Shown in pieces: positions 2,544 to 49,623 of a stretch of DNA of 64,000 bases. A model generated the notes under the pieces. It was not told the DNA's origin. It saw only the letters and a program-made list of their open reading frames with translations, and ran no database searches. How positions within the stretch are numbered: the stretch's first letter is position 1; each line of letters starts with the position of its first letter. The DNA is from Candidatus Bathyarchaeota archaeon (lineage in GTDB: Archaea; Thermoproteota; Bathyarchaeia; Bathyarchaeales; Bathycorpusculaceae): NCBI GenBank assembly GCA_963811105.1, contig CAWEPZ010000001.1:51372-115371 (forward strand). The letters are read 5' to 3'. The position numbers and the translations under genes were made by a program.

Positions 2544-2567
2544 TGTTGTTGGGTTTCGACAGTTACA
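2544..2567 (-). promoter_or_regulatory. 24-bp palindromic operator upstream of the DUF5752-like gene
   Basis: Minus strand TGTAACTGT-cgaaac-CCAACAACA-aacg-GATATA; 52 bp from the start at 2492. Confidence 0.7.
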
Positions 2568-2646
2568 ATGGTGCTAACAGTTCTTGACAAAACAACCTGT
2601 TTCAATTTGTATAACCTAATTGTCCTTAGAGCAAGTGCTTGTTGTC

Positions 2647-2670
2647 TGTCTGTGCTTAATAGCAGTCACA
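2647..2670 (+). promoter_or_regulatory. 24-bp palindromic operator plus TATA (orphan; downstream gene decayed)
   Basis: TGTCTGTGC-ttaata-GCAGTCACA-tatg-TTAATA. Confidence 0.65.
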
Positions 2671-2791
2671 TATGTTAATAGAATCGCTGAGGCACCAGTT
2701 GAAGCACCTGCACCCTCCGAAGAGAAACCAAGCGAATAAACGTCCTGCGTATGAAATGCATGGACGACCCCTTTTTTTGAATCAAACCTAC

Positions 2792-3019
2792 CTACTTATC
2801 CGCACTGGATCAGCAGACCACAATATGTGACTTGCTGCCTACGCCATTTCCAAAGGAATGCGAATCAAATACAGCGAAGGTATAATCAAGGACGGCGTGG
2901 CAGTAGCTGGAGAAACTGAGCAGGGCGTGTTTGAAGCCTTAGGATTGCAATGTCCGTTGCCTGTTGAGCGGGAGATAGTGGACGGCAAACCCGTTTGGAT
3001 GCCGCCTGAAAAAATGTAA
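2792..3019 (+). pseudogene. 3' remnant of a family X DNA polymerase (thumb region)
   Basis: Manual translation LLIRTGSADHNM*LAAYAISKGMRIKYSEG...AGETEQGVFEALGLQCPLPVERE resembles the PolX TGS..HN...E..IFEALGL...P..RE pattern; internal stop, no 5' part. Confidence 0.75.
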
Positions 3020-3604
3020 ACAAACTTGAAAAGATACTGACGTTGGGGTGAATCGCGTTAAAGAATTTGCGCTCTATAACAGAGGGGGTCTTTGCTTTCT
3101 TGCTTTGTTTGTTGTTTCTTCAATTACGGGAAGGTTTTCTTTGAGTTCTCTGAATTGTTTGAGCACTGTCACGCCGAGTTGCGTGATCGTGTAGAGTTTT
3201 CTGTCTTTTCCAATGATCTTAAGTTCAACCAGTCCCTGTTTAGTTAAGAAGTCAAGGTACTCCTTTAGCACGCTGCAGTTGACCTTAGCCGTGTACATGA
3301 CGTGCGTCAGCTTCAACGGACCCAAGTGATCTAAAACCTCCAGAATTTCCAAATGCATTTCCAGTTGAGATCGTCTCACAGTTTCACCTTCTATTTTGCA
3401 GACACACTCAGTTGCTTATTAGGTATGATTCAAGGTACTTAACTCACTTATGAAAACCAACATAATATTCAAGATATGAATCGCGAATAACCTTCCAAAA
3501 GCTGCTATTTGACGCGTTATAATTGCCCTACTCCTTGCCCTCATATCCTATGGGGAGATAGTGGACACTAAAGCAGTTTGGATGCCGCCTGAAAAAAACT
3601 GTAA
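2970..3604 (+). repeat. Imperfect ~50-bp direct repeat (2970-3020 and 3553-3604) flanking the wHTH gene
   Basis: GGGAGATAGTGGACggcAAAcCcGTTTGGATGCCGCCTGAAAAAA versus GGGAGATAGTGGACactAAAgCaGTTTGGATGCCGCCTGAAAAAA. Confidence 0.85.
3074..3379 (-). CDS. Winged helix-turn-helix transcription regulator (HTH_45/ArnR1-like)
   Basis: MRRS.LE...EIL.......KLTHVMY...VN...LKEYLDFL...GLV......Y.IT..G pattern. Confidence 0.85.
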   Translation of the reverse strand: MRRSQLEMHLEILEVLDHLGPLKLTHVMYTAKVNCSVLKEYLDFLTKQGLVELKIIGKDRKLYTITQLGVTVLKQFRELKENLPVIEETTNKARKQRPPLL

Positions 3605-3915
3605 CATTCTATCAAGTTAACCTCGTTGTGAATCTGAAAGAAGAAGTGATAAACAACAAATTCTTGTAGTTTTGATGGGGTGGAAAGGGGGATTAAGCGG
3701 ATTTAGCCAAGCGCTAACATTGACAAGGCGCCAAAAATACTGCGAAATACCTTAGCATCTGTTAGCAGCCGGACCCGCTCAACTTGGCTCTAAGCTACTT
3801 CCACTTTCTAATTAGATACTCACAATTATAGCAAATATGAAATAATGCTGTTATAAATTGAAACAACAACCGCTAAGTTACTGCAATTGTTTTAGCGTTA
3901 CTGAACTTTGTACTT

Positions 3916-3939
3916 TGTTATATATCTGACACAGTAACA
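3916..3939 (+). promoter_or_regulatory. 24-bp palindromic operator upstream of tfs
   Basis: TGTTATATA-tctgac-ACAGTAACA-tgac-TATTTAT; 50 bp from 3989; left half degenerate. Confidence 0.55.
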
Positions 3940-3988
3940 TGACTATTTATGCTTCAATATTCTTCTATTGTGAAAAAGGAGTTGTATC

Positions 3989-4339
3989 TTGGTGGATTTT
4001 TGTTCAGAGTGCGGTTCCCGTCTTATAGCTAAAAAGGTCAAAACAGGAAAACAAACTACACTCGTGCTTGTATGTACCAAATGTGGGCACAAACTAAAAG
4101 AATCAAGTGAAAACATAAAAATCAACGGCAAAACTATAGACCACAGTCCAAAGCAACTAGTTTCAGTGTTAGGTAAAGAAATTCAGCTAAGTACTCTGCC
4201 AACCATACAGGTTACCTGCTCAAGATGTGGAAACAACAATGCTTATGCCTGGCAAGTTCAAACAAGAGGCGCAGATGAATCATCCACCCAATTTCTAAGA
4301 TGCACAAACTGCGGATATACATTTAGAGAGAATACGTAA
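3989..4339 (+). CDS. tfs: Transcription factor S (TFS / RpoM-like cleavage factor)
   Basis: Two zinc ribbons (FCSECGS..CTKCGH; CSRCGN..CTNCGY) and QTRGADE acidic hairpin. Confidence 0.92.
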   Translation: MVDFCSECGSRLIAKKVKTGKQTTLVLVCTKCGHKLKESSENIKINGKTIDHSPKQLVSVLGKEIQLSTLPTIQVTCSRCGNNNAYAWQVQTRGADESSTQFLRCTNCGYTFRENT

Positions 4340-4728
4340 GGTTTATTCACCAAAAAGAGTTTTGATTAAGTTTGAAAAGGGAAAAAACCCGTTACTTAGC
4401 TTTGAAAAACATCTAAGGCAACAAATAAAATAGTTTTCCCAATTTTTCAGTTGCAGTAAAAAAATTAAGAGAGTAACCAATAAAACCAACCAATAAAACC
4501 AAAAATCTCCACATGGACTGCCTATTCAGTTCAAACAGAACCTGCCTACAGCTTTAGAAACACAATATCTACTTCGCAATCGTTGCTGGATAGGCTTTTG
4601 GGCGAGGACATCGAGTATAGTAGAAGGACAGGGAGAAGAAAGGTTCAACTTGCATTGTAAGAAAATTCTCGTGAAAAAATGAGAGAAAGAAACGAGTAAA
4701 TTGTTTGCTTAACTGAGACTTACTTTTA

Positions 4729-4752
4729 CGTTATTGTCGTTAGACAGTCACA
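4729..4752 (+). promoter_or_regulatory. 24-bp palindromic operator upstream of the C2H2 protein gene
   Basis: CGTTATTGT-cgttag-ACAGTCACA-aatg-CTTAAG; 45 bp from 4797. Confidence 0.7.
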
Positions 4753-4796
4753 AATGCTTAAGAAAAGCATAAACCACTTGTATTATAGGTAAGATT

Positions 4797-5036
4797 TTGA
4801 CTGAGCCTGATTTTCCCTACGAAAAGAAACCAAATGAATCATTCAATGATTTGATTGCACCATCCCCACCAGATGGCTCTTTTGAATCACCAGATCAGCA
4901 GCCTTCCCTTCCTCCAATTAGTAATCCAACGCCAAACAAGGTTACTTGCCAAATATGTGGTAAAGTTTTCAATACTAAAGAAGAATTAACCATGCATTTG
5001 GAAACTGAGCATCAAACCCCCAAGAAGAAAATTTAA
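4797..5036 (+). CDS. Small Pro-rich protein with C-terminal C2H2 zinc finger
   Basis: CQICGKVFNTKEELTMHLETEH (C-x2-C-x12-H-x4-H). Confidence 0.8.
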   Translation: MTEPDFPYEKKPNESFNDLIAPSPPDGSFESPDQQPSLPPISNPTPNKVTCQICGKVFNTKEELTMHLETEHQTPKKKI

Positions 5037-5110
5037 AACTCAAAACGCCCTAATTTATTCAATAGTTGTTGATTCTCCCAAACAATTCTTTGATGGGAAA
5101 CATGATATCA

Positions 5111-5134
5111 TGTAGTTGTGACAACACAATCACA
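5111..5134 (+). promoter_or_regulatory. 24-bp palindromic operator upstream of the 57-aa Cys/His microprotein gene
   Basis: TGTAGTTGT-gacaac-ACAATCACA-atac-TATATG; 46 bp from 5180. Confidence 0.7.
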
Positions 5135-5179
5135 ATACTATATGTAGTATTATTCATTCATTTTGTTTAGGTGTAAGTT

Positions 5180-5353
5180 TTGTCAAAAGTCCAACCTCAT
5201 CCAGGTCATGAAAAACACCTCTGCAAAATGGTAGAGGATAAAGTACCAATAGAAAAGATAAAGCCACTTGTGAAAGACGCGAAATACATCTGCAAAAGCT
5301 GTATGCGTACAGCTGCCAAAGCAGAAAACCTCTGCTCCCCAGAATCCCTTTAA
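5180..5353 (+). CDS. 57-aa Cys/His-rich putative metal-binding microprotein (absent from the ORF track)
   Basis: TTG start; MSKVQPHPGHEKHLCKMVEDKVPIEKIKPLVKDAKYICKSCMRTAAKAENLCSPESL*; followed by a T-tract. Confidence 0.8.
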   Translation: MSKVQPHPGHEKHLCKMVEDKVPIEKIKPLVKDAKYICKSCMRTAAKAENLCSPESL

Positions 5354-5603
5354 ACATCTTTTCTTTTTTTTGAGAACAAGTAAGAATAGCTTAGGGGTAA
5401 AGCCGAATACTTTTAGTGGGCTGCTTGTCCCGATATTATGTATTGAAGAAAGTTGGTTAGTTGCTTTGTCTTATCTTCCACGGTTCTCAGCTGCTTCTCT
5501 ATTCAGAATCAGGCACAACAGATAGTAAAGAGCGTATGAAGCAATGTTTCCTGCGCCTATGACCTTTTTTATGGCCAAACGGCCAGCCGCTGCCCATGTG
5601 TTT

Positions 5604-5675
5604 TTAGTTTTGGTGGCATTCATGTGGTTTATCTTTTGTTTTCTGGATCTTGCCCTTTGCTTCTTCGTCACTCAC
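5604..5675 (-). pseudogene. Possible truncated CsbD-like paralog
   Basis: MSDEEAKGKIQKTKDK... resembles the N-terminus of the 6252-6416 protein (MSEDEVKGKLKKDEGK), then stops. Confidence 0.35.
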
Positions 5676-5818
5676 TTAAAAACCCTCAAAAAATCAGCTC
5701 TCACAATGGCTAATAAACAAACTGGTACCCTGACGGTTCAAAGGAAACTGAAGCTAAAGAATAATTAAGAAACATTCATATGACTTCCAAAAAGACTGAA
5801 AAGAAAGGCTGATGAAGT

Positions 5819-5842
5819 TGTAACTGTTTGTTCACAGTCACA
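5819..5842 (+). promoter_or_regulatory. 24-bp palindromic operator upstream of the lmo0937-like gene
   Basis: TGTAACTGT-ttgttc-ACAGTCACA-cata-TTAAAA; near-perfect palindrome, 50 bp from 5892. Confidence 0.8.
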
Positions 5843-5891
5843 CATATTAAAATAAAGCAGTCAAGTTAAGGGTAAGTGAAGGTTTTTGAAA

Positions 5892-6050
5892 ATGGGCGCA
5901 CTTGATTTTCTTTTCGTAGTTGCTGTGATTCTTATCGTATTGTGGCTTTTGGGCTTTTTCATCTTCAACCTTGGCACTATCATATGGGTTCTGCTTGTCA
6001 TCGCCATCATTATAATACTTGCCCGACTGCTTACAGGACGCAGAGTATAA
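5892..6050 (+). CDS. lmo0937/DUF5670-like small membrane protein (absent from the ORF track)
   Basis: MGALDFLFVVAVILIVLWLLGFFIFNLGTIIWVLLVIAIIIILARLLTGRRV*; LWLLG and C-terminal GRR signature. Confidence 0.85.
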   Translation: MGALDFLFVVAVILIVLWLLGFFIFNLGTIIWVLLVIAIIIILARLLTGRRV

Positions 6051-6181
6051 CAGCAACCAAAAACATGGTAGCAGCGCCAAAAGCTGCTTCCCAACTTTTT
6101 TGTAAACGTGAAGAAGTCATATTTGTTCGAAGGATTCACATTCACAAGACGAAATAGACTCTCTTTAAAGCAACGGCTTAT

Positions 6182-6205
6182 TGTTGGTGCGAGATAACAG
6201 TCACA
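6182..6205 (+). promoter_or_regulatory. 24-bp palindromic operator upstream of the csbD-like gene
   Basis: TGTTGGTGC-gagata-ACAGTCACA-tacg-TTTAAT; 47 bp from 6252. Confidence 0.75.
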
Positions 6206-6251
6206 TACGTTTAATTAAATCTCAGAGGTACTACGTTTATAGTGAAATTTT

Positions 6252-6416
6252 ATGAGTGAAGATGAAGTTAAAGGAAAACTCAAAAAGGATGAAGGCAAAA
6301 TCCGCGTAGGCGCGGGCAAAGTTACTGGCAACACAGGTCAAATAATTAAAGGCGAAGCTGAGAAAGTTAAAGGAAAAATTCAAGAAGACGTCGGCAAAGC
6401 CAAAAGAAAACTCTAA
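6252..6416 (+). CDS. csbD: CsbD-family general stress protein (absent from the ORF track)
   Basis: MSEDEVKGKLKKDEGKIRVGAGKVTGNTGQIIKGEAEKVKGKIQEDVGKAKRKL*; KG..K..GK.TGN....G...K..GK.Q...G pattern. Confidence 0.85.
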   Translation: MSEDEVKGKLKKDEGKIRVGAGKVTGNTGQIIKGEAEKVKGKIQEDVGKAKRKL

Positions 6417-6444
6417 CAAAAATAAGACCAGTTATTCAATGCTT

Positions 6445-6525
6445 CAATTATTGGCTTAAATAGTTTTTCAAGAAGTCGAAAAACTACTTGAGTCAACTAT
6501 TAAGCCGATAGCTTGTCTCTTTTTT
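6445..6525 (+). terminator. Long imperfect hairpin followed by a T-tract
   Basis: Arms 6445-6476 and 6483-6515 are largely complementary; TCTCTTTTTT follows. Confidence 0.5.
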
Positions 6526-6664
6526 CTAATTCTTCATAATCAATCAGTTATTACTTATTACGTGGCAATGCCTTCGCCTTTTTCTGGCATAAAGACTACC
6601 AATTGCTAAGATTTTCTCGAAAAAGGCTTCAAAGTTAAGAAAAAGCAAACTAAACTAGGTGCTG

Positions 6665-10044: not shown

Positions 10045-10068
10045 TGTTGCTACTTATTTGCAATCACA
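10045..10068 (+). promoter_or_regulatory. 24-bp palindromic operator upstream of the 78-aa gene
   Basis: TGTTGCTAC-ttattt-GCAATCACA-actc-TTTAAG; 52 bp from 10120. Confidence 0.6.
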
Positions 10069-10119
10069 ACTCTTTAAGTATTTTATGAAACAAATGTTAA
10101 GTAAATTAGGTAAATTTGC

Positions 10120-10356
10120 ATGGATTTTGCTGAAGCTATAGAGTTTTCAAAGAAATTTCCCACCCGTCATCCAAAAATATTCAAAGGTTTCATTGAGTGG
10201 GGTATTTGGGATACTGAAACAGGGGATTACATAGTTCTAACTGATGCAGTTTCAGTTAAGGAATCATGTTTTAATGAGTTAGACGATTATGTTAAGAGCC
10301 ACAAATTAAGAACAGACAATGTTAAGGATTATTTGATGATTTCCACACGCTGTTAA
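10120..10356 (+). CDS. Hypothetical protein (78 aa)
   Basis: ATG-initiated ORF with operator and TATA upstream. Confidence 0.65.
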   Translation: MDFAEAIEFSKKFPTRHPKIFKGFIEWGIWDTETGDYIVLTDAVSVKESCFNELDDYVKSHKLRTDNVKDYLMISTRC

Positions 10357-10375
10357 TTTCTTGGTCTGTATCAAA

Positions 10376-16639: not shown

Positions 16640-16661
16640 TTTAGGGTTTCAATTATTAATA

Positions 16662-37554: not shown

Positions 37555-40200
37555 TTATTTTTGTCTGCCGAATTTGAGCATAACAACTGTGGCTGCAATG
37601 ATTGTTATGATTATTGCAACTGCTGCTATCGCTATGTAGGTCATCAATGATGCTTCTGTTGCCACCGCACTTACAGTTGTTGTAGTCGTTGATGTTGGCG
37701 CTGCGGCTCCTGAGCCGACTGTCAAACCGGTTGTTGCGACCGAGCTACCGTAGGATGGTGTTCCTGCGAAAATAGCTGTAATTTTGTAAACGCCTGCTGT
37801 TGGGGGTGTCCATGCGTATTGGAAGGTGCCGGTTATGTCGCTTGTTGCTGTGCCTATGTTAACGCTGTTTCCGTTCGAGTCTGTGGCTACCAAGTTAACT
37901 GGGACTCCAGTTACTGTGACATTAGTTGGGATTGGAATTTGCATGTAAATGTATTCCATGTATGCGCTCATTGATTGATCAGATATACATGCAAGTTTTG
38001 GCTCTGCTTCTGAAGCTGTGCCTACTGGTGAAGTGGTGGATGGAAGTGTGCCTGGCGATTGATCCATTACGGTTCCTTGGATTAATACGCTTGTTCCGGC
38101 TGTTACTTCAGTTTGTGGTGCTGTTACGGTTGTTTCGCTTTTGCTTGGGCCGAAAACGTACATAAATCCGTCGTATCCGCTGCCAGCTGTTAGATAGCCG
38201 TCTGCAAATGCGCCTGGGGTCATGTATCCGGTGATGTTCCACATGTTTGTGCCAGTGGTAGCGTTAAGAGCGTACATTTTCCAGCCTCTGGTCATGGGCT
38301 GTGAGGGGGTGTGTTCGTTACTGAACACGAAAATTTTTCCGTCGCCGACGCTAACGCCTCCTGATCCGAAGAATGAGTATTGGTTGATGCCGTCAGTTGT
38401 GTACGGTGTTTCGAATGCGTAGGGTGTTGGTGATATGAAGTGCCAAGCTATTTTTCCCGTTGACCAGTTTATCGCGTAAACTCCGTCGTAGGTCTGTGTG
38501 TATATTAAGCCGTAACCAGATTCCGCAGAGTATGACCAGAAACATCCCCATGGATCTCCAGTTTGCTCGCTTACCCAAGCTTGTTTGCCCGTTCTAAGGT
38601 CCCATGCTGCCCATTGTCTTTGTGTTTGTGTTGATGCTGCATACATTCCGTTGTCAGCCATGCCATCTTCAAAGTATGTGAGACTTGAAGTTACGTTCCA
38701 AAGCAGTTTTCCTGTTGTTAAGTCGACGCCCTGAAGGAATCTTGAAATTTGTGTGCCTGCGGTTGAAACTGTGCCTGTTGTAACTGCTATGCCAGTGTTG
38801 AAATCGGCAGTGCCCAAGCTGGCAAATGGATAGCTTACGTTGCTAATTATTCTGGTGGTAAAGTCTGTGCTGCTTCCGGTTAGGTTCCAGATAACCAGGC
38901 GATATGGATCAGTAGTTACGCCTGTGGTTTGTACGCTGTAGACTTTCTCGTTTCCCCACACTGTGCCCGTAAAAGGAATTGTTATGTTTGTGCTGGCTGC
39001 GCCTGTGAATGGATTGTACTTCACTAGTCTGGTTGCGCTGATGTAAACTAGCGATGGTGCTGATCTCCAGTCGGATTCTGCTCCTACTACTTCTGGAGTG
39101 GCTGCTTCCCACATGATTCTAGTTGGTATCATCGTTATGCCTGTTTGTTCCCAGTAGATTTGGCCTGTTCGCAAGTCGTAGCATTGCCAAACGCTCGTAG
39201 GTAACATTACTTCTGAGCCGTTTACTAATTGCATCATTGATTTTGTTATTGTTTGGTAGCATCTGCCCATGAAGATTATGCTTGGGAAGTTTGTGTCCAT
39301 ACCGAATCCTCCTCCGCTGTAGATTGATGTTTGAACGCCTCCGCCTCCTCTTTCTGCTACGTCGCCGCCTACAATGCCGCCTAGTTCACCTGCGCGTCTC
39401 CAAATAACGTGCGCTGTGTTTGGTGCTGTAACGTATGGTCCTTGGAATCTGTAGTTGTTGGCGTATCCCCATGGATAGCTTCCTGCGATCTGCCACCATT
39501 CTCGGAAGTTGACTGAAATTGGTCGTGCCCAATAGCTTGTTGGGAGTGGTGCTGGTGGCCATGAGGCAACTAGATCAGTTTGTACTTCAAAGTTTATTGT
39601 TTTGCTTGTCGAGGTTTGATAGTAGGTTGATGTTAGGTTTGTTCCTCCGGTTGCTGGGGCTCCTGCGAGCCTTGTTCCGTTGGGGTATGCGACTAGTACT
39701 CCGCCTAGGTAGAATCCTGCTGGGAGGTATTGTCCTGGGAAGGTGAAAACTGCAGACCAATTGCCAATCTGGTCAGGTTCATAGGTGAACCATGCTGTTG
39801 AGTCGGCTGGGTATGAGTTTAGAGGTCCAATTTTTTCGGTGGTTTTATCTGGTTTTGTTAAGGTTACGGTGTAGTCTTTGAGTGATCTGACTGCGTTGGG
39901 TGGGGGCTGAATCCACATGTTGACTAGTATTGGTTGAGTTAAGCCTACTATAGAGGGACTAACACTTAGATAGGATGTTGTAGCAACTGTTCCGTCTGGT
40001 ATGATTCCGCTGGCTAAAGGTCCCGTTGTGCCAGAAACAACTATTCCTTGAGGGTTGCCGGCCGTTATTCCTGCTGCTTTAGTTGGTGAAGTAAATGTTG
40101 CGGTTGAAGCCATTAAAAATATCAAAAGGGATATTACTGCAATGTTTGCTTTTTTTCTTGAAATATTCAATTTTATCTCTCCGTATTTGATTTTGAGCAA
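37555..40200 (-). CDS. PQQ-like beta-propeller cell-surface protein, paralog 1 (signal peptide, C-terminal TM anchor)
   Basis: CYDLRTG, DLTTGKLLW, A.N.STG..AW repeats; EHTPSQP.TRGW; C-terminal TM plus basic tail; true start probably ~30 bp inside. Confidence 0.88.
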   Translation of the reverse strand: MLKIKYGEIKLNISRKKANIAVISLLIFLMASTATFTSPTKAAGITAGNPQGIVVSGTTGPLASGIIPDGTVATTSYLSVSPSIVGLTQPILVNMWIQPPPNAVRSLKDYTVTLTKPDKTTEKIGPLNSYPADSTAWFTYEPDQIGNWSAVFTFPGQYLPAGFYLGGVLVAYPNGTRLAGAPATGGTNLTSTYYQTSTSKTINFEVQTDLVASWPPAPLPTSYWARPISVNFREWWQIAGSYPWGYANNYRFQGPYVTAPNTAHVIWRRAGELGGIVGGDVAERGGGGVQTSIYSGGGFGMDTNFPSIIFMGRCYQTITKSMMQLVNGSEVMLPTSVWQCYDLRTGQIYWEQTGITMIPTRIMWEAATPEVVGAESDWRSAPSLVYISATRLVKYNPFTGAASTNITIPFTGTVWGNEKVYSVQTTGVTTDPYRLVIWNLTGSSTDFTTRIISNVSYPFASLGTADFNTGIAVTTGTVSTAGTQISRFLQGVDLTTGKLLWNVTSSLTYFEDGMADNGMYAASTQTQRQWAAWDLRTGKQAWVSEQTGDPWGCFWSYSAESGYGLIYTQTYDGVYAINWSTGKIAWHFISPTPYAFETPYTTDGINQYSFFGSGGVSVGDGKIFVFSNEHTPSQPMTRGWKMYALNATTGTNMWNITGYMTPGAFADGYLTAGSGYDGFMYVFGPSKSETTVTAPQTEVTAGTSVLIQGTVMDQSPGTLPSTTSPVGTASEAEPKLACISDQSMSAYMEYIYMQIPIPTNVTVTGVPVNLVATDSNGNSVNIGTATSDITGTFQYAWTPPTAGVYKITAIFAGTPSYGSSVATTGLTVGSGAAAPTSTTTTTVSAVATEASLMTYIAIAAVAIIITIIAATVVMLKFGRQK

Positions 40201-40461: not shown

Positions 40462-40923
40462 CTAATTAGCTTTGCCGCATTCTGAGCAAAAAGCGCCTTG
40501 TTCAACTTTTGTTCCACAGTATTTGCAGTTTATAGGTAACCTAGCTATTAGGTGGTCAATTTTTAACATAGTTTGATTGTAGCTTGCTATCAATGATTGC
40601 CGTTCATTTTGCATTCTAGCTTGAAGTTGCTCAAGGTTTTTTGCAAAAGCAGTCGTTGTTATTTGTCTTTCAACTTGGAGGCTGGAAACTAGCTTTAATG
40701 AATTAGCTTTCACGATTCCAAACATTACTATTGCTTGTCCAATTGACTGGATTACGGCACCAAATATCAACGCGCTTTGATTGTTGGGAACAATTTGTGA
40801 TACTAATCCGAAAAGTCTACTTTCTTGTAAGATTATAAGTAAGCCAACAACAAAAAAGGCTAACCCAAGTATTATATAACCCCGAGGAGGAAAAACTATT
40901 TTCTTCATAAGACAATTCTCCAT
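40462..40923 (-). CDS. Two-TM, coiled-coil, C-terminal zinc-ribbon protein
   Basis: CKYCG......FCSECG at the C-terminus. Confidence 0.8.
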   Translation of the reverse strand: MENCLMKKIVFPPRGYIILGLAFFVVGLLIILQESRLFGLVSQIVPNNQSALIFGAVIQSIGQAIVMFGIVKANSLKLVSSLQVERQITTTAFAKNLEQLQARMQNERQSLIASYNQTMLKIDHLIARLPINCKYCGTKVEQGAFCSECGKAN

Positions 40924-40984: not shown

Positions 40985-41008
40985 TGTGACTGTAATTAAG
41001 CAACCACA
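40985..41008 (-). promoter_or_regulatory. 24-bp palindromic operator upstream of the zinc-ribbon gene
   Basis: Minus strand TGTGGTTGC-ttaatt-ACAGTCACA-acgt-CTTTTAAG; 62 bp from 40923. Confidence 0.75.
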
Positions 41009-41214: not shown

Positions 41215-41238
41215 TGTGACTGACAGAACACAACAACA
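41215..41238 (+). promoter_or_regulatory. 24-bp palindromic operator upstream of tatA
   Basis: TGTGACTGA-cagaac-ACAACAACA-aagc-TATTTATT. Confidence 0.7.
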
Positions 41239-41305
41239 AAGCTATTTATTAAAACACGGGGTAAGAAATAAGCTAAATAAACAATTCAAGGAGTATTTGT
41301 TAGAA

Positions 41306-41641
41306 ATGCTTGAAGGATGGGAATGGATTATCATCGGTGTTGTTGCTATCGTCATTATTATGTGGGGTCCTGCTAAGATTCCCGAGTTTGCTAAATCTTT
41401 AGGTAGGGCTAAAGGTGAATTTAGTAAGGCGCAGAAAGAGTTTACTGATGCTGCAACTGGTGCTGCTATGACTAACACTGCAGTTGTTGTTGAAAAGCGG
41501 CCTGCTTCTGCAATAAAGACTAAGGATGAGATGTTGCTTGAGACTGCTCAGCGGCTTGGAATACCTACCGAAGGCAAAACTAGAGAGCAAATATCCGAAG
41601 AAATATCCGTCAAAGTAAAATTGCTAGGCGCGGAACAATAA
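41306..41641 (+). CDS. tatA: Twin-arginine translocase TatA/E subunit
   Basis: G.EWIII....II.WGP.KIPE.AKSLGRA.GEF.K; start refined to MLEGWEW. Confidence 0.92.
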   Translation: MLEGWEWIIIGVVAIVIIMWGPAKIPEFAKSLGRAKGEFSKAQKEFTDAATGAAMTNTAVVVEKRPASAIKTKDEMLLETAQRLGIPTEGKTREQISEEISVKVKLLGAEQ

Positions 41642-42028
41642 GTCTTCTTTCGCTTTATTTTTTTCGAAGCGGAACGAGTCTAAGTATAGGATCATTTGTT
41701 TTTGTTTCATTAAACCGCAACCTAATTTGCTTTATGAATTGATAGAGCTCGGAAAAGAAGAAAAGAAGGACAAAGCATCGGAACAAAGGTTTGATGCATC
41801 TTTATTTTTCAAATCTGATTGTAGGTTTGCAACTTTCCCGGTTGATCACGGCGCAGTATTTTAATTTGGATGTAACCGATCGATGAAGTAGATGAGCTCA
41901 ATGCTTAAATTGCATAAAGATGCCGTAGAAGGTTTTATTACATGCAGACTCAAGACTTTGGTGGCAAGAAATTACGTGGAATCTAAAGTAAATTCGAGGT
42001 TAACAGAAAACTATTGAGAGTTGAAAAT

Positions 42029-43741
42029 ATGTTGCTTTTGACAAAGAGAACCCAAACCTGCATAGTTATTCTTATTGTTACGCTTATACTTGCCATAACC
42101 ATTCCAGAAATATCCCTTGTAGCATCAACATCTCCCGCTGACAGCTGGACAGCAAGCACATGGTTCCACCTTTACTCACCTGCGGGAAAAACCCCAGAAG
42201 GCGCAACCCTCGCAACCCTCAGTCCAACAGGTTTAACCCCGACCCAGATTCGGAAAGCCTACAATCTACCTGCGCAGGGTGGCAACGGAACAATTGCCCT
42301 AATCGATGCCTACGATTGCCCAACAGTTCAAAATGACTTTATCACATTTAGCAACCAATTCGGGTTACCCACAACAAACTTTCAAGAACACAAAATGACT
42401 CCAAACATTGCAGCTGATGCTGGTTGGGCAGTTGAGATATCGCTTGACGTGCAGTGGGCTCACGCTATAGCTCCAAACGCAACAATACTCCTGGTAGAGG
42501 CCAAGAGTAGCTCATTGGCTGATCTTCTTGCGGCAGTTAGTTACGCCACAAATCGTGCTGATGTGGTTGCAGTATCTATGAGTTGGGGTGGGTCTGAGTT
42601 TATAGGTGAAAGCACTTTGAATTCCTATTTTACCAGCAATCATGGCGTTGTCTTCTTTTCCTCTTCAGGAGACAGCGGATCTGGTGTAATCTGGCCTTCC
42701 TCTTCCTCGAATGTAGTTGCAGTTGGCGGGACATCCTTAAAGCTTAACCCTGATGGAACAGTTTCTTCAGAAACGGCTTGGAGCGGCAGCGGCGGCGGCA
42801 TAAGTGTTTATGAATCAGAACCTCAATATCAAATAACCTATAACATCTCAGGAGTTAATGGCAAACGTGGCATTCCTGATGTTTCTTACGATGCAGATCC
42901 AGCATCAGGCTTCCCGGTATATGACACAACTGCTTACGGTGGGCAAACCGGGTGGTTCCAAGTTGGCGGAACAAGCGCAAGCGCTCCTCAATGGGCAGCT
43001 ATACATTCTCTTGGGCTTTCGGTTTCAAGCAACAACTTGTACCAGAATGCAAAATGGAACAGCGCAACATACTTCAGAGATATCACTTCGGGATCAAACG
43101 GCGTATACTTAGCAGCTCCAGGGTACGACCTAGTGACTGGCTTAGGCAGCCCCATAACCTGGAACTTTACAGCCGGAATCGGCTCTGACTTTTCTATTTC
43201 ATCATCCCCCTCTACAATATCAGTGCGGAATGGATCTTTGGGTAATTCCAACATCACAGTCAAATCTGTTAACGGCTTCGCTGGCAAAGTTTCTCTTTCA
43301 GCGTACCCACCTCCTGGTTGGACTGCATCATTCAACTCCTCTTCGGTTGTTGTTCCTTTAGGTGGTTCAAATAAATCTGTGCTTTCCGTGACTACCTCCC
43401 CTGGGGCTAAAGCGGGAACATATAATGTCACCATAGTAGGGTCTTACGGCTCACTAAATCACAATGCCTCATTAGCAGTAAACATTACGACTGGAACGAC
43501 TTCAATCACGGGTTTCATTGTTCAGAGTGGAGGTAGTGGTTACACTACTCCTGCTGTAATCATTACGGGGGGAGGCGGATCAGGCGCTATGGCTACTGCA
43601 AGAGTCTCAAATGGCGTAGTCCTTGGCATAGTGCTTACGAAATCGGGCACCGGTTATACTTCAACTCCTACCGTTAGCATCAGAGATCCTAGTCCAAGAG
43701 CCAAAGGCGCTGCTGCCATGGCATTACTCTCCTCAACTTGA
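42029..43741 (+). CDS. Secreted S53 (sedolisin-like) peptidase with Ig-like domain and C-terminal Gly-rich beta module
   Basis: EISLD (E-x3-D), [29 protein letters not shown]; N-terminal hydrophobic signal. Confidence 0.9.
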
Positions 43742-44026
43742 GGAAATAACCTAATTATCTAAATTGGTTAGCACTCGCAAATAACAGTGGACTAACAATT
43801 GCATCTAAAAGAAGTCTGAAGAAGCACAAACCAGGCGTTAAGACTAATATGAAGTGAATGATTATTTTAGGGCATGGGTAAGCAACATTTTAGCATGGGT
43901 TAAAGTAATGCCTCTATTTGAATTGGCTTATTCTGAGCATTTTATTATTCAACTTCCAAAAAACACGATTTGTTACTGACTTGCGCCCCTTTGATTACCT
44001 TTCTTGCATGAGATGCCTTGCTTGGT

Positions 44027-44050
44027 TGTGGGTGTCACTTGACAGTCACA
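44027..44050 (+). promoter_or_regulatory. 24-bp palindromic operator upstream of the multicopper oxidase gene
   Basis: TGTGGGTGT-cacttg-ACAGTCACA-tatt-TTAAAA; 49 bp from the ATG at 44099. Confidence 0.8.
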
Positions 44051-44098
44051 TATTTTAAAATACTTACAGTCAGGAAAATTACGTTGAGGAAATTTTTC

Positions 44099-47000
44099 AT
44101 GTCAAGCGCTCCCGATTCAGAGAAAAATGTAGAGGATATCTCCAAAAGGCGTTTCTTTAAATCAAGCACTGCTATTGCAGGTGCTCCAATTAAAGCATTG
44201 ACAAAAGAAACCAATAGAAAACGTGTATTGGGACGACACAATTCTCCTGCAAGTAGATCAATGTCCCGCCGTACCTTCGTCAAAGTTGCAGCGGGAGGCG
44301 CAGCTATTGTTGGTCTAGCGTTTGCAGTATCCAAGTCACTTCCAGAAGTAAAAGCTGTTCCTGGTTCGTCCACTGATTTGAAGTACACGGGCAAGGTAAC
44401 ACAAGCTGACAGACTAAAGGCAGCGGCAAATCGACCAAAAGCCACAGTTATCGCGCCTACAGTTTCTCCGTCCCCTGGCGGTACACCTGACTATTTTGGC
44501 ACCACACCTAACTACGCCAACAGCCCAATGCCTACTGTTACTGGCACTCTTGGGACTGGTATTACTCTTAACGGTTTTTCTGTTACGAATAGTGGGTCGG
44601 GGTATACGACTCCTGCTGTTGTTCTCTCCGGTGGGGGTGGTACTGGTGCTGCTGCGACTGCGCGGGTTTCTCAGGGTCGTGTTATTGCTTTGGTGCTTAC
44701 TAATGCGGGTACCGGTTATACTTCGGCTCCATCTGTAGCGTTAAGGGATCCTAGTCCAAGAGCTAAAGGAGCCGTCGCAACTGCAACCTTCATCAGCAAT
44801 GGCGGGTCATTTGTAATTACTGGTGGGATCCGTAAATTCGTTGATTCCTTGCCTGGTCTTGGAGCCAGTGGAATGAACAACCTTGGGCAGTTCATCCCAG
44901 TTGCTGTTCCAGATATAACAACGTTTCCTGGATCTGACTTTTACAGAATTGAGTTGAGGCAATATACTGAGAAAATGCATTCAGATCTGCCTCCGACCAC
45001 TTTACGTGGGTACGTGCAGGTTGATGCGGCTGGTAATCCGATTGCTGCTATTCATTATCTTGGACCAGTAATTGTTGCCACCAGAGACCGTCCCGTTCGT
45101 GTAAAGTTTACTAACAGACTTCCTACAGCTGCTGGAGGCAATTTGTTCATACCAGTCGATACAACGTATATGGGTGCTGGAGCAGGCCCTGCTGGAGGCA
45201 GCTTTACGCAGAACCGTGCGGCCATGCACCTTCACGGCGGTAACACGATCTGGATTAGCGATGGAACCCCTCATCAATGGACTGTTCCTGTAGGTGAAAC
45301 CACTGCATATCCAAAAGGTGTATCAGTTAGGTACGTACCAGACATGGATAGTGGAAACGAACCACAGGGAACATTAACATTCTTCTACAGCAACCAGCAA
45401 AGCGCACGACTGATGTTCTACCACGACCACGCTTACGGCATAACACGACTCAACGTTTACGCCGGAGAAGCCGCAGGATATCTATTAACCGACACCACCG
45501 AAACAGCTCTCATATCTAACGGCATTCTCCCAGATCTGGGAATTCCGCTAATAATTCAAGACAAGACTTTTGTTGACGCCACAACGATAGCTGCTCAAGA
45601 CCCAACTTGGAACTGGGGAACAACACCGCCAACTCCACAAACAGGCGACTTATGGTGGCCTCACGTTTACATGCCAAACCAGAATCCATCGCCAACGGCA
45701 TCAGGGGCGAATCCATGTGGCAGATGGGATTATGGCCCATGGTTCTTCCCACCCTGGACAGTACAATTTGGAACATTAAGCAACCCCTATTATAATCCGT
45801 CAGCTGCACCATGGGAACCAACAGTTATCCCAGGAACTCCCAATCCATCAGGCGTGCCCGAATCCTTCATGGACACACCCCTTGTCAACGGAAATGCCTA
45901 CCCCTTCTTAACAGTTTCACCGAGACTCTACAGGTTCCGTATCCTGAATGCCTGTAACGACCGATTCCTTAACCTGCAAATCTATCAAGCAACAAGCATC
46001 ATTGACACAATCACAATCACTGGCGGTGGAAGTGGATACGCGTCAGCGCCATCTGTAACGATCACAGGCGGCGGAGGAACTGGTGCACTTGCTACAGCAA
46101 CTATCACAGGTGGAGCTGTAACAGCAATTAATCTCTTGAGCGTAGGTAGCGGCTACTCAACAGCACCAACTGTAACCATTTCGCCACCAACCGGTTTAGG
46201 TGGCACAACTTCCACAGCATCAGCTACAGTTTACACGGGACTAACAGAAGTCGGCATGCTTCCTGCGAATCCAGGCACATGGCCAGCGGATTATCCAACA
46301 GCAGACGGTCGAGCAGGCGGTTTCCCAGACCCCGCCCTCAGAGGACCAGCAATAATACAAATTGGTACTGAAGGAGGATTCCTACCCGCACCGGCACTGA
46401 TAACCAATAGACCCATAGGGTATGATTACAATCGAAGAAGCATAACAGTATTGAATGTCTTAGAAAAAGCTTGTAATTTAGGACCAGCGGAAAGAGCTGA
46501 CGTACTTATCGATTTCACCAATTTTGCAGGCAAAACTCTTATTCTGTATAACGACGCACCGGCACCGGTGCCTGCATTTGACCCACGGGTTGATTATTTC
46601 ACTGGTGATGGTGATCAGACATCAACAGGTGGCGCTTCAAACACGATTCCTGGATATGGTCCCAATACTCGAACGATAATGCAAATTCGTGTAGCTGCAG
46701 GAGGATCCTCGACTGCCCCACCGAACGATTACAGCCCAGCGAAACTAGCCGCGCTCACAACAGCCTTAGCTAATGCATTCCGCACCACTCAAGATACCAT
46801 CATCGTTCCAGAATCCGCGTACAACGCAGCCTACGGAGGAACCTTCCCAGATAACTATGTATTGATCCAAGATACAACTCACGCTTTCATCCCAATGGGT
46901 CAGACAACCCCACTGACGATGCCTTTGCTTCCCAAAGGTATCCAAGAGCTTTTCACCAACGACTACGGACGAATGAACGCATTACTTTCCTATGAAATAC

Positions 47001-47857
47001 CTAACACCAACGGCACAATCCAGACAACTATAATTCAGGCCTACATTGACCCGCCAAACGAAATTATGGCGCCATCACTTGCCTCAACTCCAATAGGATC
47101 AACAAACGATGGAACACAAATCTGGAAGTTCACCCACAACGGAGTAGACACCCATGCCATACACTTCCACCTATTCAATATTCAACTAATAAACCGCGTC
47201 GGCTGGGATGGAGCAGTAAAACCGCCAAACAATAACGAACTTGGCTGGAAAGATACAATTCAAATGAATCCACTGGAAGATGCGATAGTCGCACTAAGAC
47301 CAATAATTGCTACAAATCATCCGTTCAAAGTTCCAAACAGCATTCGACTGCTTGATCCAACTCAACCACAAGGAGGAATCATGAATTTCACTAACATCAA
47401 TCCACTGGGCAATCCTGTTACAGTAACTAATGAAATGACAAACTTCGGTTGGGAATACGTTGACCATTGCCACTTACTTGGTCATGAAGAAAACGACATG
47501 ATGCGACCCATGTGTTGTGCAGTCCCACCAGAAGCTCCCACCAGTCTATCGGTTACAGGAACTGTAGGAGGCATCGGACTAAGCTGGATAAACAACGCAT
47601 TAAACACAACCAGCCTAACAATACAAAGATCAACAACATCAGCATTCACCACTTTCGTAACATTTACACCCCCATTAGCGACAGCCACGACCTTCACTGA
47701 CACAACCGCAGTCGTTGGAACACCATACTATTACAGAGTAATAGCCGTAAACACAGTTGGCATAATCATGGCAACAGGAATCCCGGTAACAGGATACCCA
47801 TCAATGACCGCAAACTCCAACCCATCAAACACCGTAAACACAACAAGAACCGCGTAA
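44099..47857 (+). CDS. Tat-exported multicopper oxidase (CotA/bilirubin oxidase-like) with inserted Gly-rich beta modules and C-terminal FN3-like domain
   Basis: HLHGG, FYHDH, HAIHFH, HCHLLGHEENDMM (all four Cu motifs, Met axial ligand); SRRTFVK plus h-region; start refined to the ATG at 44099. Confidence 0.92.
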   Translation: MSSAPDSEKNVEDISKRRFFKSSTAIAGAPIKALTKETNRKRVLGRHNSPASRSMSRRTFVKVAAGGAAIVGLAFAVSKSLPEVKAVPGSSTDLKYTGKVTQADRLKAAANRPKATVIAPTVSPSPGGTPDYFGTTPNYANSPMPTVTGTLGTGITLNGFSVTNSGSGYTTPAVVLSGGGGTGAAATARVSQGRVIALVLTNAGTGYTSAPSVALRDPSPRAKGAVATATFISNGGSFVITGGIRKFVDSLPGLGASGMNNLGQFIPVAVPDITTFPGSDFYRIELRQYTEKMHSDLPPTTLRGYVQVDAAGNPIAAIHYLGPVIVATRDRPVRVKFTNRLPTAAGGNLFIPVDTTYMGAGAGPAGGSFTQNRAAMHLHGGNTIWISDGTPHQWTVPVGETTAYPKGVSVRYVPDMDSGNEPQGTLTFFYSNQQSARLMFYHDHAYGITRLNVYAGEAAGYLLTDTTETALISNGILPDLGIPLIIQDKTFVDATTIAAQDPTWNWGTTPPTPQTGDLWWPHVYMPNQNPSPTASGANPCGRWDYGPWFFPPWTVQFGTLSNPYYNPSAAPWEPTVIPGTPNPSGVPESFMDTPLVNGNAYPFLTVSPRLYRFRILNACNDRFLNLQIYQATSIIDTITITGGGSGYASAPSVTITGGGGTGALATATITGGAVTAINLLSVGSGYSTAPTVTISPPTGLGGTTSTASATVYTGLTEVGMLPANPGTWPADYPTADGRAGGFPDPALRGPAIIQIGTEGGFLPAPALITNRPIGYDYNRRSITVLNVLEKACNLGPAERADVLIDFTNFAGKTLILYNDAPAPVPAFDPRVDYFTGDGDQTSTGGASNTIPGYGPNTRTIMQIRVAAGGSSTAPPNDYSPAKLAALTTALANAFRTTQDTIIVPESAYNAAYGGTFPDNYVLIQDTTHAFIPMGQTTPLTMPLLPKGIQELFTNDYGRMNALLSYEIPNTNGTIQTTIIQAYIDPPNEIMAPSLASTPIGSTNDGTQIWKFTHNGVDTHAIHFHLFNIQLINRVGWDGAVKPPNNNELGWKDTIQMNPLEDAIVALRPIIATNHPFKVPNSIRLLDPTQPQGGIMNFTNINPLGNPVTVTNEMTNFGWEYVDHCHLLGHEENDMMRPMCCAVPPEAPTSLSVTGTVGGIGLSWINNALNTTSLTIQRSTTSAFTTFVTFTPPLATATTFTDTTAVVGTPYYYRVIAVNTVGIIMATGIPVTGYPSMTANSNPSNTVNTTRTA

Positions 47858-47965
47858 ACACCCGCGCCAAAATCCCCCTCTATCTTTCTTCTTTCTTAAC
47901 AAATAAAATTTGAAAAATTATACCTCAAACCGAATTGGCTAATAGTATTATAATTAATTGGAGAT

Positions 47966-48877
47966 TTGAATATGACCGGAAAATTTTTTACTTGGCCAAA
48001 ACTCCTGATAATTCTTGTAGCAATAATAATTGTTATTGTGGGCGTAGTGTGGTTTTCTTCTCTAAACGCGCCTTCATCATCCACTTCTCCGACTCCAACT
48101 CCCATAGTTCCTTCAAGCTCGCCAACTCAAACTGCTACTTCAACACCTAAACCAAGTCCAACCCCTATCAGTTCCTCAACGCCGATTTCATCAACTCCTA
48201 CACCGGCGCCCCAAACTTCCGCTACGCCAACTCCAACCTTAACCCCAACTTTAACACCTACATCAACTCCTACTCCAACTCCAACAACCACTCCTTCGCC
48301 AACCCCAACACCAACTCCACAACCCACAACCGTTGTCTTCAACTTCGACAATGCAACCCCAACACTTTCCCCAGGTCGAGGCACACCCATCGATCAAACA
48401 GCAACTGGTGTCACAGCACATTTCAGCTCACCATCTGACATACCATCGAAACCAGCTTTTTCAGTCCAAAACCTCAACTCATTAGCAGCGATATCAACCG
48501 TAATAAATTCCCCAAATTTTTCAGGCCTCTTCCTTTGGCCCAGCACAATCAACAGAGACCGCCTAGACATCAGTTTTAGCAGCAACGTAACACGCATTAG
48601 CTTCACATTCAAGACCGCGGAATTACATGATCCAGGTCCAGGCGGAACCGGCAGCCCCATCAGGTTGACGGCATACTTGAACTCCGCCTCCAATCCAGTC
48701 GGGTCTCCGTTGACAGTTAATGGCGTCGAAACACCGTTCGATACTTACCCCGAAGGCACATTAACCTTCAACTCAGGCGGACAACCATTCAACACGGTTG
48801 AGATAGATCTGCCTTACATCTCTGCTGAAGGAGCAACAGGTTTCATAATCGACAACGTAACCATCATTACAACCTAA
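47966..48877 (+). CDS. Membrane-anchored extracellular protein with Pro/Thr stalk and C-terminal beta-rich domain
   Basis: N-terminal TM, ~80-aa S/T/P repeat (TPTPTPT), then a globular domain ending FIIDNV. Confidence 0.8.
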   Translation: MNMTGKFFTWPKLLIILVAIIIVIVGVVWFSSLNAPSSSTSPTPTPIVPSSSPTQTATSTPKPSPTPISSSTPISSTPTPAPQTSATPTPTLTPTLTPTSTPTPTPTTTPSPTPTPTPQPTTVVFNFDNATPTLSPGRGTPIDQTATGVTAHFSSPSDIPSKPAFSVQNLNSLAAISTVINSPNFSGLFLWPSTINRDRLDISFSSNVTRISFTFKTAELHDPGPGGTGSPIRLTAYLNSASNPVGSPLTVNGVETPFDTYPEGTLTFNSGGQPFNTVEIDLPYISAEGATGFIIDNVTIITT

Positions 48878-49102
48878 CCTTGGCTAAGCACAAATAAATT
48901 ATAGCGCACTTTTTGTTGTGATTTCTATCAGCATTTATTTGAAATAGATAACCTTGTTGTTTGCCAATAACTAAAGTAATGGAAGTTCGGGTTCCAAGAT
49001 TTGAAGCTGAGCGCGGGTAACTTTTCCACTCTGGCGGGTTCAAAAACATGCCCTGCTTTCTTAAAGAAGTATGGGTGTTGCGGGTGATGTCTGCTCAGGT
49101 GA

Positions 49103-49129
49103 CGGAGTTCGAGTCCCTCCCCATCACTA
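49103..49129 (+). repeat. tRNA 3'-end-like fragment (att-like) next to an integrase remnant
   Basis: CGGAGTTCGAGTCCCTCCCCATCACTA, 44 bp from the integrase stop. Confidence 0.5.
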
Positions 49130-49172
49130 CTACGGCAAATTATGCCGAGGGTTTACACCGCTGATGTTTCTG

Positions 49173-49395
49173 TTATTTTCTTTTGCGGAAAAGTCCGTTA
49201 CCGTGGAAGTCGCAAACGAAATCAAATCCTGCGTTGATTAATGTAATTGCTTCGCCCTCTGTTTTTGTTGTTTTGTAGATGTATTTCGATTTCCTCTTTG
49301 AAGAGTTCCTCTGGAAGTTGCACGTAGATTAGGGTGTTTTCGATGCCTTTGTGGCCAAGATTTGTTTAACGTGTAGGATGTCTTTTGTTCGGTTG
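49173..49395 (-). pseudogene. Tyrosine recombinase/integrase C-terminal remnant
   Basis: NRTKDILHVKQ/LGHKGIENTLIYVQL...EAITLINAGFDFVCDFHGNGLFRKRK*, with frameshifts. Confidence 0.8.
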
Positions 49396-49599
49396 CTCAC
49401 CGACGATTAGATGGGAAAGAATAAATGATGATTACAAGAAAAGTGGTCAGACTGACGAACAATTTGTGGGAGAAGATAAGCGAGTTAAATTTGAGGAATA
49501 GACTGAACATGGATAACAAGTAGAACTCTGATGATTATAGGTCTACATAAAAAATATTTACTAATCATTCATTAGAAAGGTTACTTAAGAATTAAGTCA

Positions 49600-49623
49600 A
49601 GTTACTGTCCTGCCACAGTCACA
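49600..49623 (+). promoter_or_regulatory. 24-bp palindromic operator upstream of the 682-aa gene
   Basis: AGTTACTGT-cctgcc-ACAGTCACA-cact-TTAATA; 46 bp from 49669. Confidence 0.75.

Follow-up and report, generated by a model that had tools for sequence, protein, structure and literature searches.

General-stress regulons of bacteria, among them those of SigB in Firmicutes, RpoS in Escherichia coli and EcfG/PhyR in Alphaproteobacteria, place one signal, an alternative sigma-factor promoter, ahead of many small and otherwise unrelated genes; the CsbD, KGG, DUF5670 (lmo0937-like) and PRC-barrel families mark such regulons. To our knowledge, archaea have no sigma factors. The archaeal regulators TFB-RF1 of Pyrococcus, Ptr2 of Methanocaldococcus and GvpE of Halobacterium, the last with its upstream activating sequence, have sites at or just upstream of the TFB-recognition element (BRE) and the TATA box, and serve one or a few promoters each. 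Palindromes ahead of larger, lineage-specific regulons are exemplified by the Thermococcales glycolytic motif (TGM, TATCAC-N5-GTGATA) with TrmBL1/Tgr and, in bacteria, by the radiation/desiccation response motif (RDRM) of Deinococcus with DdrO. Here we describe a 24-bp palindrome in a stretch of 64,000 nucleotides (the window, C1:51372-115371, where C1 is the contig) from the 15-contig, 3.49-Mb assembly of a Bathyarchaeota archaeon (labelled G000), together with the set of promoters that it marks.

Bathyarchaeia are among the most abundant uncultured archaea of sediments, soils and peat, and we know of no work on gene regulation in them. An earlier reading of the window (the original prediction) had proposed an undescribed archaeal counterpart of the SigB regulon. 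The present analysis of sequence, position and target genes indicates that the palindrome is very probably the docking site of one transcription factor running a stress regulon. The first part of the proposal, that stress-type gene families stand under one motif, was upheld; its archaeal scope has to be narrowed to a few Bathyarchaeia lineages. Operators with lineage-specific regulons are well known. The portions of the literature on archaeal and Bathyarchaeia regulation and stress that were available to us contain nothing on this motif, which appears not to have been described before, and neither do its regulon and distribution.

The palindrome and its promoter geometry

The exact pattern, TGTNNNTGYNNNNNNRCANNNACA, occurs six times in the window as opposed to 0.03 expected, a number that 0 of 100 dinucleotide shuffles reached. 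When one mismatch is allowed there are 12 matches, namely 11 of the 12 sites of the original prediction and an additional one at 62721; at two mismatches the pattern becomes noisy in the window (19 matches vs 10.4 expected). The whole genome contains 39 exact matches. Scanning of the central spacer from 0 to 12 bp yielded these 39 for a length of six, and 0-4 for every other length. An iterated position weight matrix (PWM), with a cut-off of 14 bits for site calling, revealed ~120 distinct genome sites, of which the 12 first reported, 11 of them solid, are a local sample. In the matrix check suggested with the original prediction, a threshold of 20 bits gave 92 strand-hits for the real genome compared with 2 for a third-order Markov shuffle, and 70 of the 75 sites at this level are intergenic. 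Judged by a crude codon-usage gene caller (3877 genes, 78% coding), 43 of the 75 have a called gene start 30-110 nt downstream; others lie ahead of open reading frames (ORFs) missed by the caller or act in the opposite orientation.

Alignment of 44 oriented promoters gave the consensus t-TGT-(t/g/a)-G-(t/c)-T-G-(t/c)-N6-(A/g)-C-A-(G/a)-(T/c)-C-A-C-A, followed by n-A-t-n and (T/c)-T-T-A-A, with 12.5 bits of information in the promoter-proximal half and 10.6 bits in the distal half. The TGT/ACA triplets are centred at positions 2, 8, 17 and 23, which puts 21 bp, or two helical turns, between the outer two and 9 bp between the inner two. The position relative to the TATA box is fixed, as had been claimed: a proximal half-site followed by YTTAA was found in 19 cases at a gap of 4 bp, compared with 1-4 cases at each of the other gaps between 0 and 9. 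Most start codons are 43-65 nt downstream of the genome sites, and TATA-like words in ordinary promoters of this genome peak 40-60 nt upstream of start codons, which matches the geometry of the motif promoters. Outside the motif and TATA box, conservation around the 39 exact sites is close to background, and the motif is therefore not a dispersed repeat. Three palindromes (C3:127690, C9:228449 and C9:382965) are two-sided, with a TATA-like box at the canonical offset on either side. Divergent genes flank them, such as a DUF5752-like gene paired with a Cys-rich 56-residue ORF, or an MsrA-like gene with a metallo-beta-lactamase-fold gene.

In the window, a TATA-like box follows the motif on the gene side at all 12 sites of the original prediction, at a distance of 3-6 bp (about 4 bp had been given). 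The motif end is 44-51 nt from the start codon at nine sites (2544, 3916, 4729, 5111, 5819, 6182, 10045, 44027 and 49600), 61 nt at site 40985 and 67 nt at site 41215, close to the earlier values of 45-52 and ~60-70; the copy said to lack an intact gene is that at 2647, and the minus-strand action of sites 2544 and 40985 was likewise confirmed. Between 10045 and 40985 the PWM scan found no site of at least 12 bits. The candidate sites are as follows (PWM scores in bits).

2544-2567, minus strand: candidate operator site, PWM 23.1, one mismatch; start of the DUF5752-like gene 2103-2492(-) 51 nt off
2647-2670, plus strand: candidate operator site, exact, PWM 17.7; followed by tatg and TTAATAG, no intact gene downstream
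3916-3939, plus strand: doubtful half-site, three mismatches, PWM 11.5; 49 nt ahead of the TFS-paralogue gene 3989-4339
4729-4752, plus strand: candidate operator site, PWM 21.7; small C2H2 zinc-finger protein 4797-5036 (zf-C2H2, E 2.2e-6)
5111-5134, plus strand: candidate operator site, exact, PWM 26.8; 57-residue Cys/His-rich microprotein 5180-5353
5819-5842, plus strand: candidate operator site, exact, PWM 25.0; DUF5670 (lmo0937-like) membrane microprotein 5892-6050 (E 5.8e-8)
6182-6205, plus strand: candidate operator site, exact, PWM 25.3; csbD 6252-6416 (CsbD, E 4e-10)
10045-10068, plus strand: candidate operator site, PWM 23.4; 78-residue protein 10120-10356, no Pfam family
40985-41008, minus strand: candidate operator site, exact, PWM 27.9; 153-residue membrane protein 40462-40923(-), no Pfam family
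41215-41238, plus strand: candidate operator site, PWM 26.9, weaker half proximal; tatA 41306-41641 (TatA_B_E, E 5.8e-13)
44027-44050, plus strand: candidate operator site, exact, PWM 27.2; 1252-residue Tat-signal multicopper oxidase 44099-47857 (Cu-oxidase_2)
49600-49623, plus strand: candidate operator site, PWM 21.7; 682-residue protein 49669-51717, no Pfam family
62721-62744, plus strand: additional weak match, one mismatch, PWM 17.0; no TATA-like box at +4 and no ORF downstream

Site 2544 is retained in related loci (L001-L003 and L005-L007), and the DUF5752 assignment of its gene has an E value of 2.4e-10. The equivalents of site 2647 in relatives (L002, L005, L007 and L014) stand in front of a csbD ORF; the stretch 2647-2830 is therefore best taken as a relic promoter, whose csbD copy would have been lost recently while the operator survives. 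Site 3916 is the weak member of the set. It retains only the promoter-proximal half, ACAGTAACA, plus the outer TGT, and is followed by tgac and TATTTAT; with three mismatches and a score below the 14-bit cut-off it is a half-site at best. The gene behind it has a zinc ribbon (Zn_ribbon_TFIIS, E 1.9e-18), and its membership in the regulon, resting on this degenerate site, is doubtful. Of the other targets named in the original prediction, Pfam assigned csbD, the lmo0937-like and DUF5752-like genes, tatA, the multicopper oxidase and, among the Zn-binding microproteins, zf-C2H2. The match at 62721 is probably not functional.

The microprotein gene 5180-5353 has a TTG start with a Shine-Dalgarno-like sequence and belongs to no Pfam family; paralogous promoters to those at 5111 and 10045 are found at C2:500327 and C13:106834, respectively. 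Site 41215, divergent from site 40985, is followed by aagc and TATTTATT, and a second tatA copy (C13:147166) likewise carries a site. The 153-residue protein encoded opposite tatA has a Cys-rich, zinc-ribbon-like C-terminal end. About 415 bp upstream of the window start, at C1:50956, an 18-bit site precedes a truncated 26-residue DUF5670-like ORF, apparently what is left of a paralogue of gene 5892-6050 in the window.

The multicopper oxidase and the 575-residue protein 42014-43741 have in common a repeated Gly-rich segment (GGGSGYT..P.V...GGGG.GA.ATA...G.V....L...), which may be a shared surface-anchoring or repeat module. In addition, the window encodes three surface-type proteins of 870-880 residues (37555-40200, 56246-58894 and 59496-62108) with ordinary, motif-less promoters; PQQ_2 and Big_3_5 domains are present in both of those scanned. 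Of the two BRE-TATA strings earlier quoted for surface-protein genes, one is found exactly at 55282-55295(-), and the other, at 62160-62175(-) upstream of gene 59496-62108, differs by one letter.

Target genes and distribution among genomes

The motif marks about 100 of the ~3900 called genes and one of six thermosome paralogues, the most divergent one, and is therefore not a generic promoter; the original prediction had likewise set it apart from the general core promoter. Each of the three CsbD and three DUF5670 loci, and the KGG cluster as a whole, has a link to a site, either directly or as a second gene behind a motif promoter. In addition to these three families, the small targets assigned by Pfam comprise DUF5518, PRC-barrel and DUF5752 proteins, a bPH_3 (bacterial PH domain) protein, four C2H2 zinc-finger proteins and an HTH_45 winged-helix protein; in relatives, stand-alone Lrp/AsnC-RAM proteins and GYD proteins join the list. 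The larger and redox targets are the divergent Cpn60_TCP1 thermosome paralogue, an F420-type oxidoreductase, the two TatA proteins, the multicopper oxidase 44099-47857 and plastocyanin-like proteins (one by Pfam, Copper-bind; two by sequence resemblance only), and the envelope is further represented by a gluconate-2-dehydrogenase subunit-3 protein with a Tat signal and by three InlB-B-repeat surface proteins. Several target families have no Pfam assignment: a 65-residue "MPEQ" family (four copies), the 57-residue Cys/His microprotein (two copies), a 91-residue acidic protein, a 192-residue protein and two single-copy proteins of 90 and 99 residues, termed P90 and P99 and discussed below. MsrA-, cytochrome-b5-, hemerythrin-, glyoxalase-, cupin- and fasciclin-like targets and a second PRC-barrel-like one were named from their sequences alone. 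The gene content thus supports the view that hallmark families of bacterial general-stress regulons stand under one motif.

The distribution of the motif was assessed in samples of related genomes, in which co-occurrence counts are not independent observations, and a genome was termed motif-rich if it had at least five exact hits. In the genus sample, 53 of 61 genomes have 5-39 exact hits and eight have 0-2, as opposed to 0-2 hits everywhere for a reversed control pattern; the eight motif-poor genomes, among them G006, G018, G024, G048, G051, G061 and G182, are the small ones (1.0-2.0 Mb). Among 151 genomes of the class only eight reach five hits, and all others have at most three. Six of the eight belong to the genus itself (G000 with 39 hits, G013 with 21, G017 with 11, G041 with 5, G200 with 14 and G206 with 11), one to a sister genus (G149, 10 hits) and one to a different family (G138, 63 hits). 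In none of 256 genomes from other classes of the phylum was the motif enriched over its control, the maximum being 10 compared with 6 for the control in a 4.3-Mb genome. The motif system is confined to a few Bathyarchaeia lineages and is not archaea-wide. The sites of G138 show the same 4-bp-to-TATA geometry, and the targets are in part homologous, with a homologue of P90, a bPH protein and one that is GYD-like; ElaB-like, DJ-1/PfpI-like and AhpD-like targets were read there from the sequence alone.

The sites are also conserved at orthologous promoters. In the syntenic loci L001-L014, those before csbD, DUF5670 and C2H2 orthologues are retained while the N6 spacer and the degenerate positions drift. 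In a survey of 30 CsbD loci from G000 and 25 other genomes, the two subtypes shared with the window genome have a site 44-53 nt before the start codon in at least 13 loci. Direct searches for CsbD in five motif-poor genomes found none; across the eight motif-poor genomes of the genus there was one weak match (G066, E 5.5e-4), and C2H2, P90 and P99 had no match in these eight. A perfect-looking site was seen in another family of the order, in a genome where the motif is not enriched (G040:C1:1003232-1003686), ~275 bp upstream of a weak P90-like match, and could be a leftover of the system, or its seed, beyond the genus.

Close relatives of a window protein are encoded by metagenome-assembled genomes of Bathyarchaeota/Bathyarchaeia from bog, palsa, peat and soil. 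The beta-CASP protein of the window has copies of 80-90% identity on contigs labelled Gemmatimonadales (L013) and Sulfotelmatobacter (L015), both probably mis-binned; a match on a Deltaproteobacteria contig (L017) is only 40% identical and need not be mis-binned. A search for AmoA gave no match, and since the control genomes likewise gave none, it is uninformative.

Proposed mode of action and candidate binding factors

The 24-bp element is very likely a transcription-factor operator that defines a regulon, as its sequence and placement suggest. The dyad would be recognized by one sequence-specific factor, acting as a dimer or a dimer of dimers, and the spacing of the triplets would fit the former, if its half-site contacts are bipartite, as well as the latter. 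Dyad symmetry, a single spacer length and a single distance to the TATA box together suggest that a rigid DNA-binding protein of twofold symmetry sits next to the pre-initiation complex. Ending 4 bp upstream of the YTTAAR TATA box, the site would touch the 5' edge of the BRE position and, on the usual archaeal TATA-to-start distance, would span about -59 to -36 relative to the transcription start. The proposed regulon would comprise ~80-100 promoters. Small stress-type proteins would dominate it, accompanied by an oxidative and envelope set (the MsrA-like protein, the thermosome paralogue, both TatA proteins, the Tat-exported multicopper oxidase, the plastocyanin-like proteins and the F420-type oxidoreductase). 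From its fixed position the factor could help TFB/TBP onto otherwise silent promoters, and the whole set might be switched on jointly under stress, such as oxygen exposure, desiccation or the like in soil and peat. This reading as a whole (one twofold-symmetric factor, a stress regulon, activation) is, on balance, the one that we would expect to hold.

The sign of regulation is the less secure part. With the same operator and regulon, the factor could instead be a repressor that blocks TFB at the 5' edge of the BRE until stress releases it. The site stops 4 bp short of the TATA box and so reaches into the place expected for the BRE, the TATA boxes of the regulon match TTTAA/CTTAA well and could drive transcription unaided, and many archaeal regulators repress. 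On the other hand, archaeal repressors mostly bind over or downstream of the TATA box or transcription start at variable positions, whereas the placement here is rigid and upstream. We lean towards activation, because known archaeal activator sites likewise keep a fixed phase and lie entirely on the upstream side of the TATA box and because the three two-sided palindromes carry TATA-like boxes on both sides; repression by occlusion of the BRE is possible, though we hold it to be doubtful.

Several findings weigh against an activated stress regulon as set out above. The overlap of the last bases of the site with the expected BRE position is equally compatible with occlusion of TFB. In an alignment of general promoters (n=201), the A-richness upstream of the TATA box is faint and makes a poor baseline for judging the weak BRE that the original prediction ascribed to the regulon promoters. 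About 28 of the 120 PWM sites have no TATA-like word within 10 bp, and many have no callable ORF, and the size of the regulon is therefore approximate. The InlB-B-repeat surface proteins and an ABC ATPase among the targets are not obviously stress genes. In the CsbD survey, the subtypes not shared with the window genome had a site at the expected position in 0 of 8 loci. Finally, every candidate for the binding factor (one HTH_45 protein, the C2H2 proteins, the TrmB-like protein, P90 and P99) fails the phyletic test somewhere.

With close orthologues in just 13 of 61 genomes, the 74-residue HTH_45 protein that has a site of its own (C13:130127) is rejected as master regulator. The HTH_45 gene of the window (3074-3379) is rejected too, as none of the syntenic islands L001-L016 holds an orthologue; the family has ~26 paralogues above the Pfam cut-off in G000. 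Within the genus, C2H2 microproteins occur in 44 of the 53 motif-rich genomes and in none of the 8 motif-poor ones, which marks them as targets that are not required. There are 24 ORFs in G000 with an Lrp/AsnC ligand-binding domain, many of them stand-alone, and those near sites are stand-alone RAM/GYD proteins as opposed to full-length regulators. A 261-residue TrmB-like gene adjoins two sites; it is patchy, multi-copy and often pseudogenised, and does not track the motif. Its two copies (C3:4935-5853 and C11:223309-224227) are 92% identical, each with a motif site and TATA-like box ~110 bp past the stop codon, and in other genomes of the genus internal stops are frequent among the several copies, so that the gene resembles a mobile or decaying cassette.

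P90 (C9:280807-281076) and P99 follow the motif best. For P90, matches were obtained in 48 of the 53 motif-rich members of the genus, in none of its 8 motif-poor members, and in 7 of the 8 motif-rich genomes of the class sample, with strong matches elsewhere only in genus g16. Its own promoter carries a site of 17.8-29.4 bits in 35 of 35 orthologues from motif-bearing genomes; the promoters of two g16 homologues have none. The gene order is conserved (a proC-like gene, a HAD gene, then P90), and in four of the five exceptions the syntenic HAD neighbour is likewise absent from the assembly. G017, 97% complete and with 11 motif hits, has no copy of P90, and another gene occupies the syntenic place. 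The structural model (predicted local distance difference test, pLDDT, 74) shows a predicted beta-beta-alpha-beta core and a long basic C-terminal helix. It has no Foldseek match to solved folds at E <=0.001 (best VIA Z 4.5), and the protein atlas gave no usable match. A Pfam scan yielded only DUF7855, in 3 of 30 members at E 8.5e-4 or weaker. Of 1275 candidates, 1028 database relatives had E <=0.001; the named ones are almost all "hypothetical protein", and none has a Pfam domain.

P99 (C2:562131-562427), whose family is unassigned, is present in 45 of the genus's 53 motif-rich genomes and missing from all 8 that are motif-poor, and its promoter has a site in 7 of 7 genus orthologues compared with 0 of 8 homologues from motif-less genera. 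The gene is absent from the single-contig genome G068 and from G149, and pseudogenised in G001. Its model (pLDDT 76) has no Foldseek match at E <=0.001, and the weak PadR-type rows (E 0.7-2) are not evidence of kinship. Because each protein has a solid phyletic exception, neither is taken as the factor; P90 and P99 are treated as signature members of the regulon and possibly regulatory parts of it. A bolder idea, which we think unlikely, is that one of them is a small regulator of a new type, an autoregulated master switch of an archaeal general stress response, and that the module moved between families (genus g1, G149, G138) while they were spreading into oxic, drying soils and peat.

Instead of a separate transcription factor, a paralogue of TFB or TBP might serve as alternative basal factor and read the palindrome as an extension of the promoter, in the style of the haloarchaeal networks. 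G000 has about five TFB genes (10 TFIIB repeats), and the better-conserved half of the motif adjoins the BRE and TATA box. The dyad, however, extends to 28 bp ahead of the TATA box, farther than the known footprint of TFB at the BRE, and some palindromes serve divergent promoters. Moreover, motif-rich G008 has two TFB genes, of the same two length classes as those of motif-poor G051, G006 and G024, and no TFB paralogue co-occurring with the motif was seen among the five genomes examined. TFB copy number does not follow the motif, which weakens the idea, and we regard it as highly improbable. Two of the TFB genes of G000 are apparently split, and TFB copies adjoin HTH_45 genes at C2:394846-397531 and C11:296234-297667; the genome has six thermosome genes.

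Least credible of all is an origin of the matches by copying of a repeat or mobile element (such as a miniature inverted-repeat transposable element or duplicated promoters), or a role as recombination site: duplicated cassettes do hold some sites (C1:50849/C11:653298 and C3:5830/C11:223309), and the TrmB-like gene with a site just past its stop codon is multi-copy and often pseudogenised, yet the flanks of the exact sites are unconserved, unrelated genes are preceded at one fixed distance, and sites are kept at orthologous promoters over dozens of species while the spacer drifts.

Relation to described regulons

The analysis yields a clean candidate regulon of about 100 promoters, with a 24-bp operator in a geometry fixed to the single base and conserved over dozens of species. 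The proposed operator offers a handle for capturing a first transcription factor of Bathyarchaeia, and the predicted co-induced gene set could serve as a stress marker in metatranscriptomes of peat and soil, for instance during water-table drawdown or exposure to oxygen. Several uncharacterised families of small proteins (P90, P99, the 65-residue MPEQ family and the C2H2 microproteins) are flagged as possibly linked to stress.

Among archaeal systems, the sites of TFB-RF1, Ptr2 and GvpE are the nearest in placement, in that spacing matters there as it does here, and recruitment of TFB/TBP, the action proposed for them, would apply to the Bathyarchaeon factor as well. They differ in the small number of promoters served, and their sequences are unrelated to the Bathyarchaeon motif. 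TGM resembles the present case as a palindrome recognized by genome comparison, with a multi-promoter regulon in one lineage and an effect that depends on position relative to the TATA box; its sequence, half-site orientation and spacing are different, and its positions vary whereas the Bathyarchaeon motif is fixed. RDRM shares with our motif a lineage-specific palindrome ahead of a stress regulon rich in small uncharacterised proteins. That system is bacterial, however, and is governed by a protease-cleaved XRE-type repressor, with a motif of unrelated sequence lying over the promoter or transcription start.

In gene content the closest likeness is to the SigB, RpoS and EcfG/PhyR regulons, with which the Bathyarchaeon set has in common CsbD, KGG proteins of the GsiB/YciG type, lmo0937/DUF5670, PRC-barrel and small membrane proteins, all behind a single signal. 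The bacterial regulons depend on alternative sigma-factor promoters, whereas the Bathyarchaeon employs a TATA promoter and a separate palindromic operator, with no sigma, anti-sigma or PhyR-like parts. As archaea have no known sigma factors and the promoters here are of the TATA type, the regulon looks like an analogue of the sigma-factor stress regulons and not a member of that group. This suggests that the gene families of bacterial sigma-factor stress regulons have been wired together in an archaeon by way of a TATA-proximal operator.

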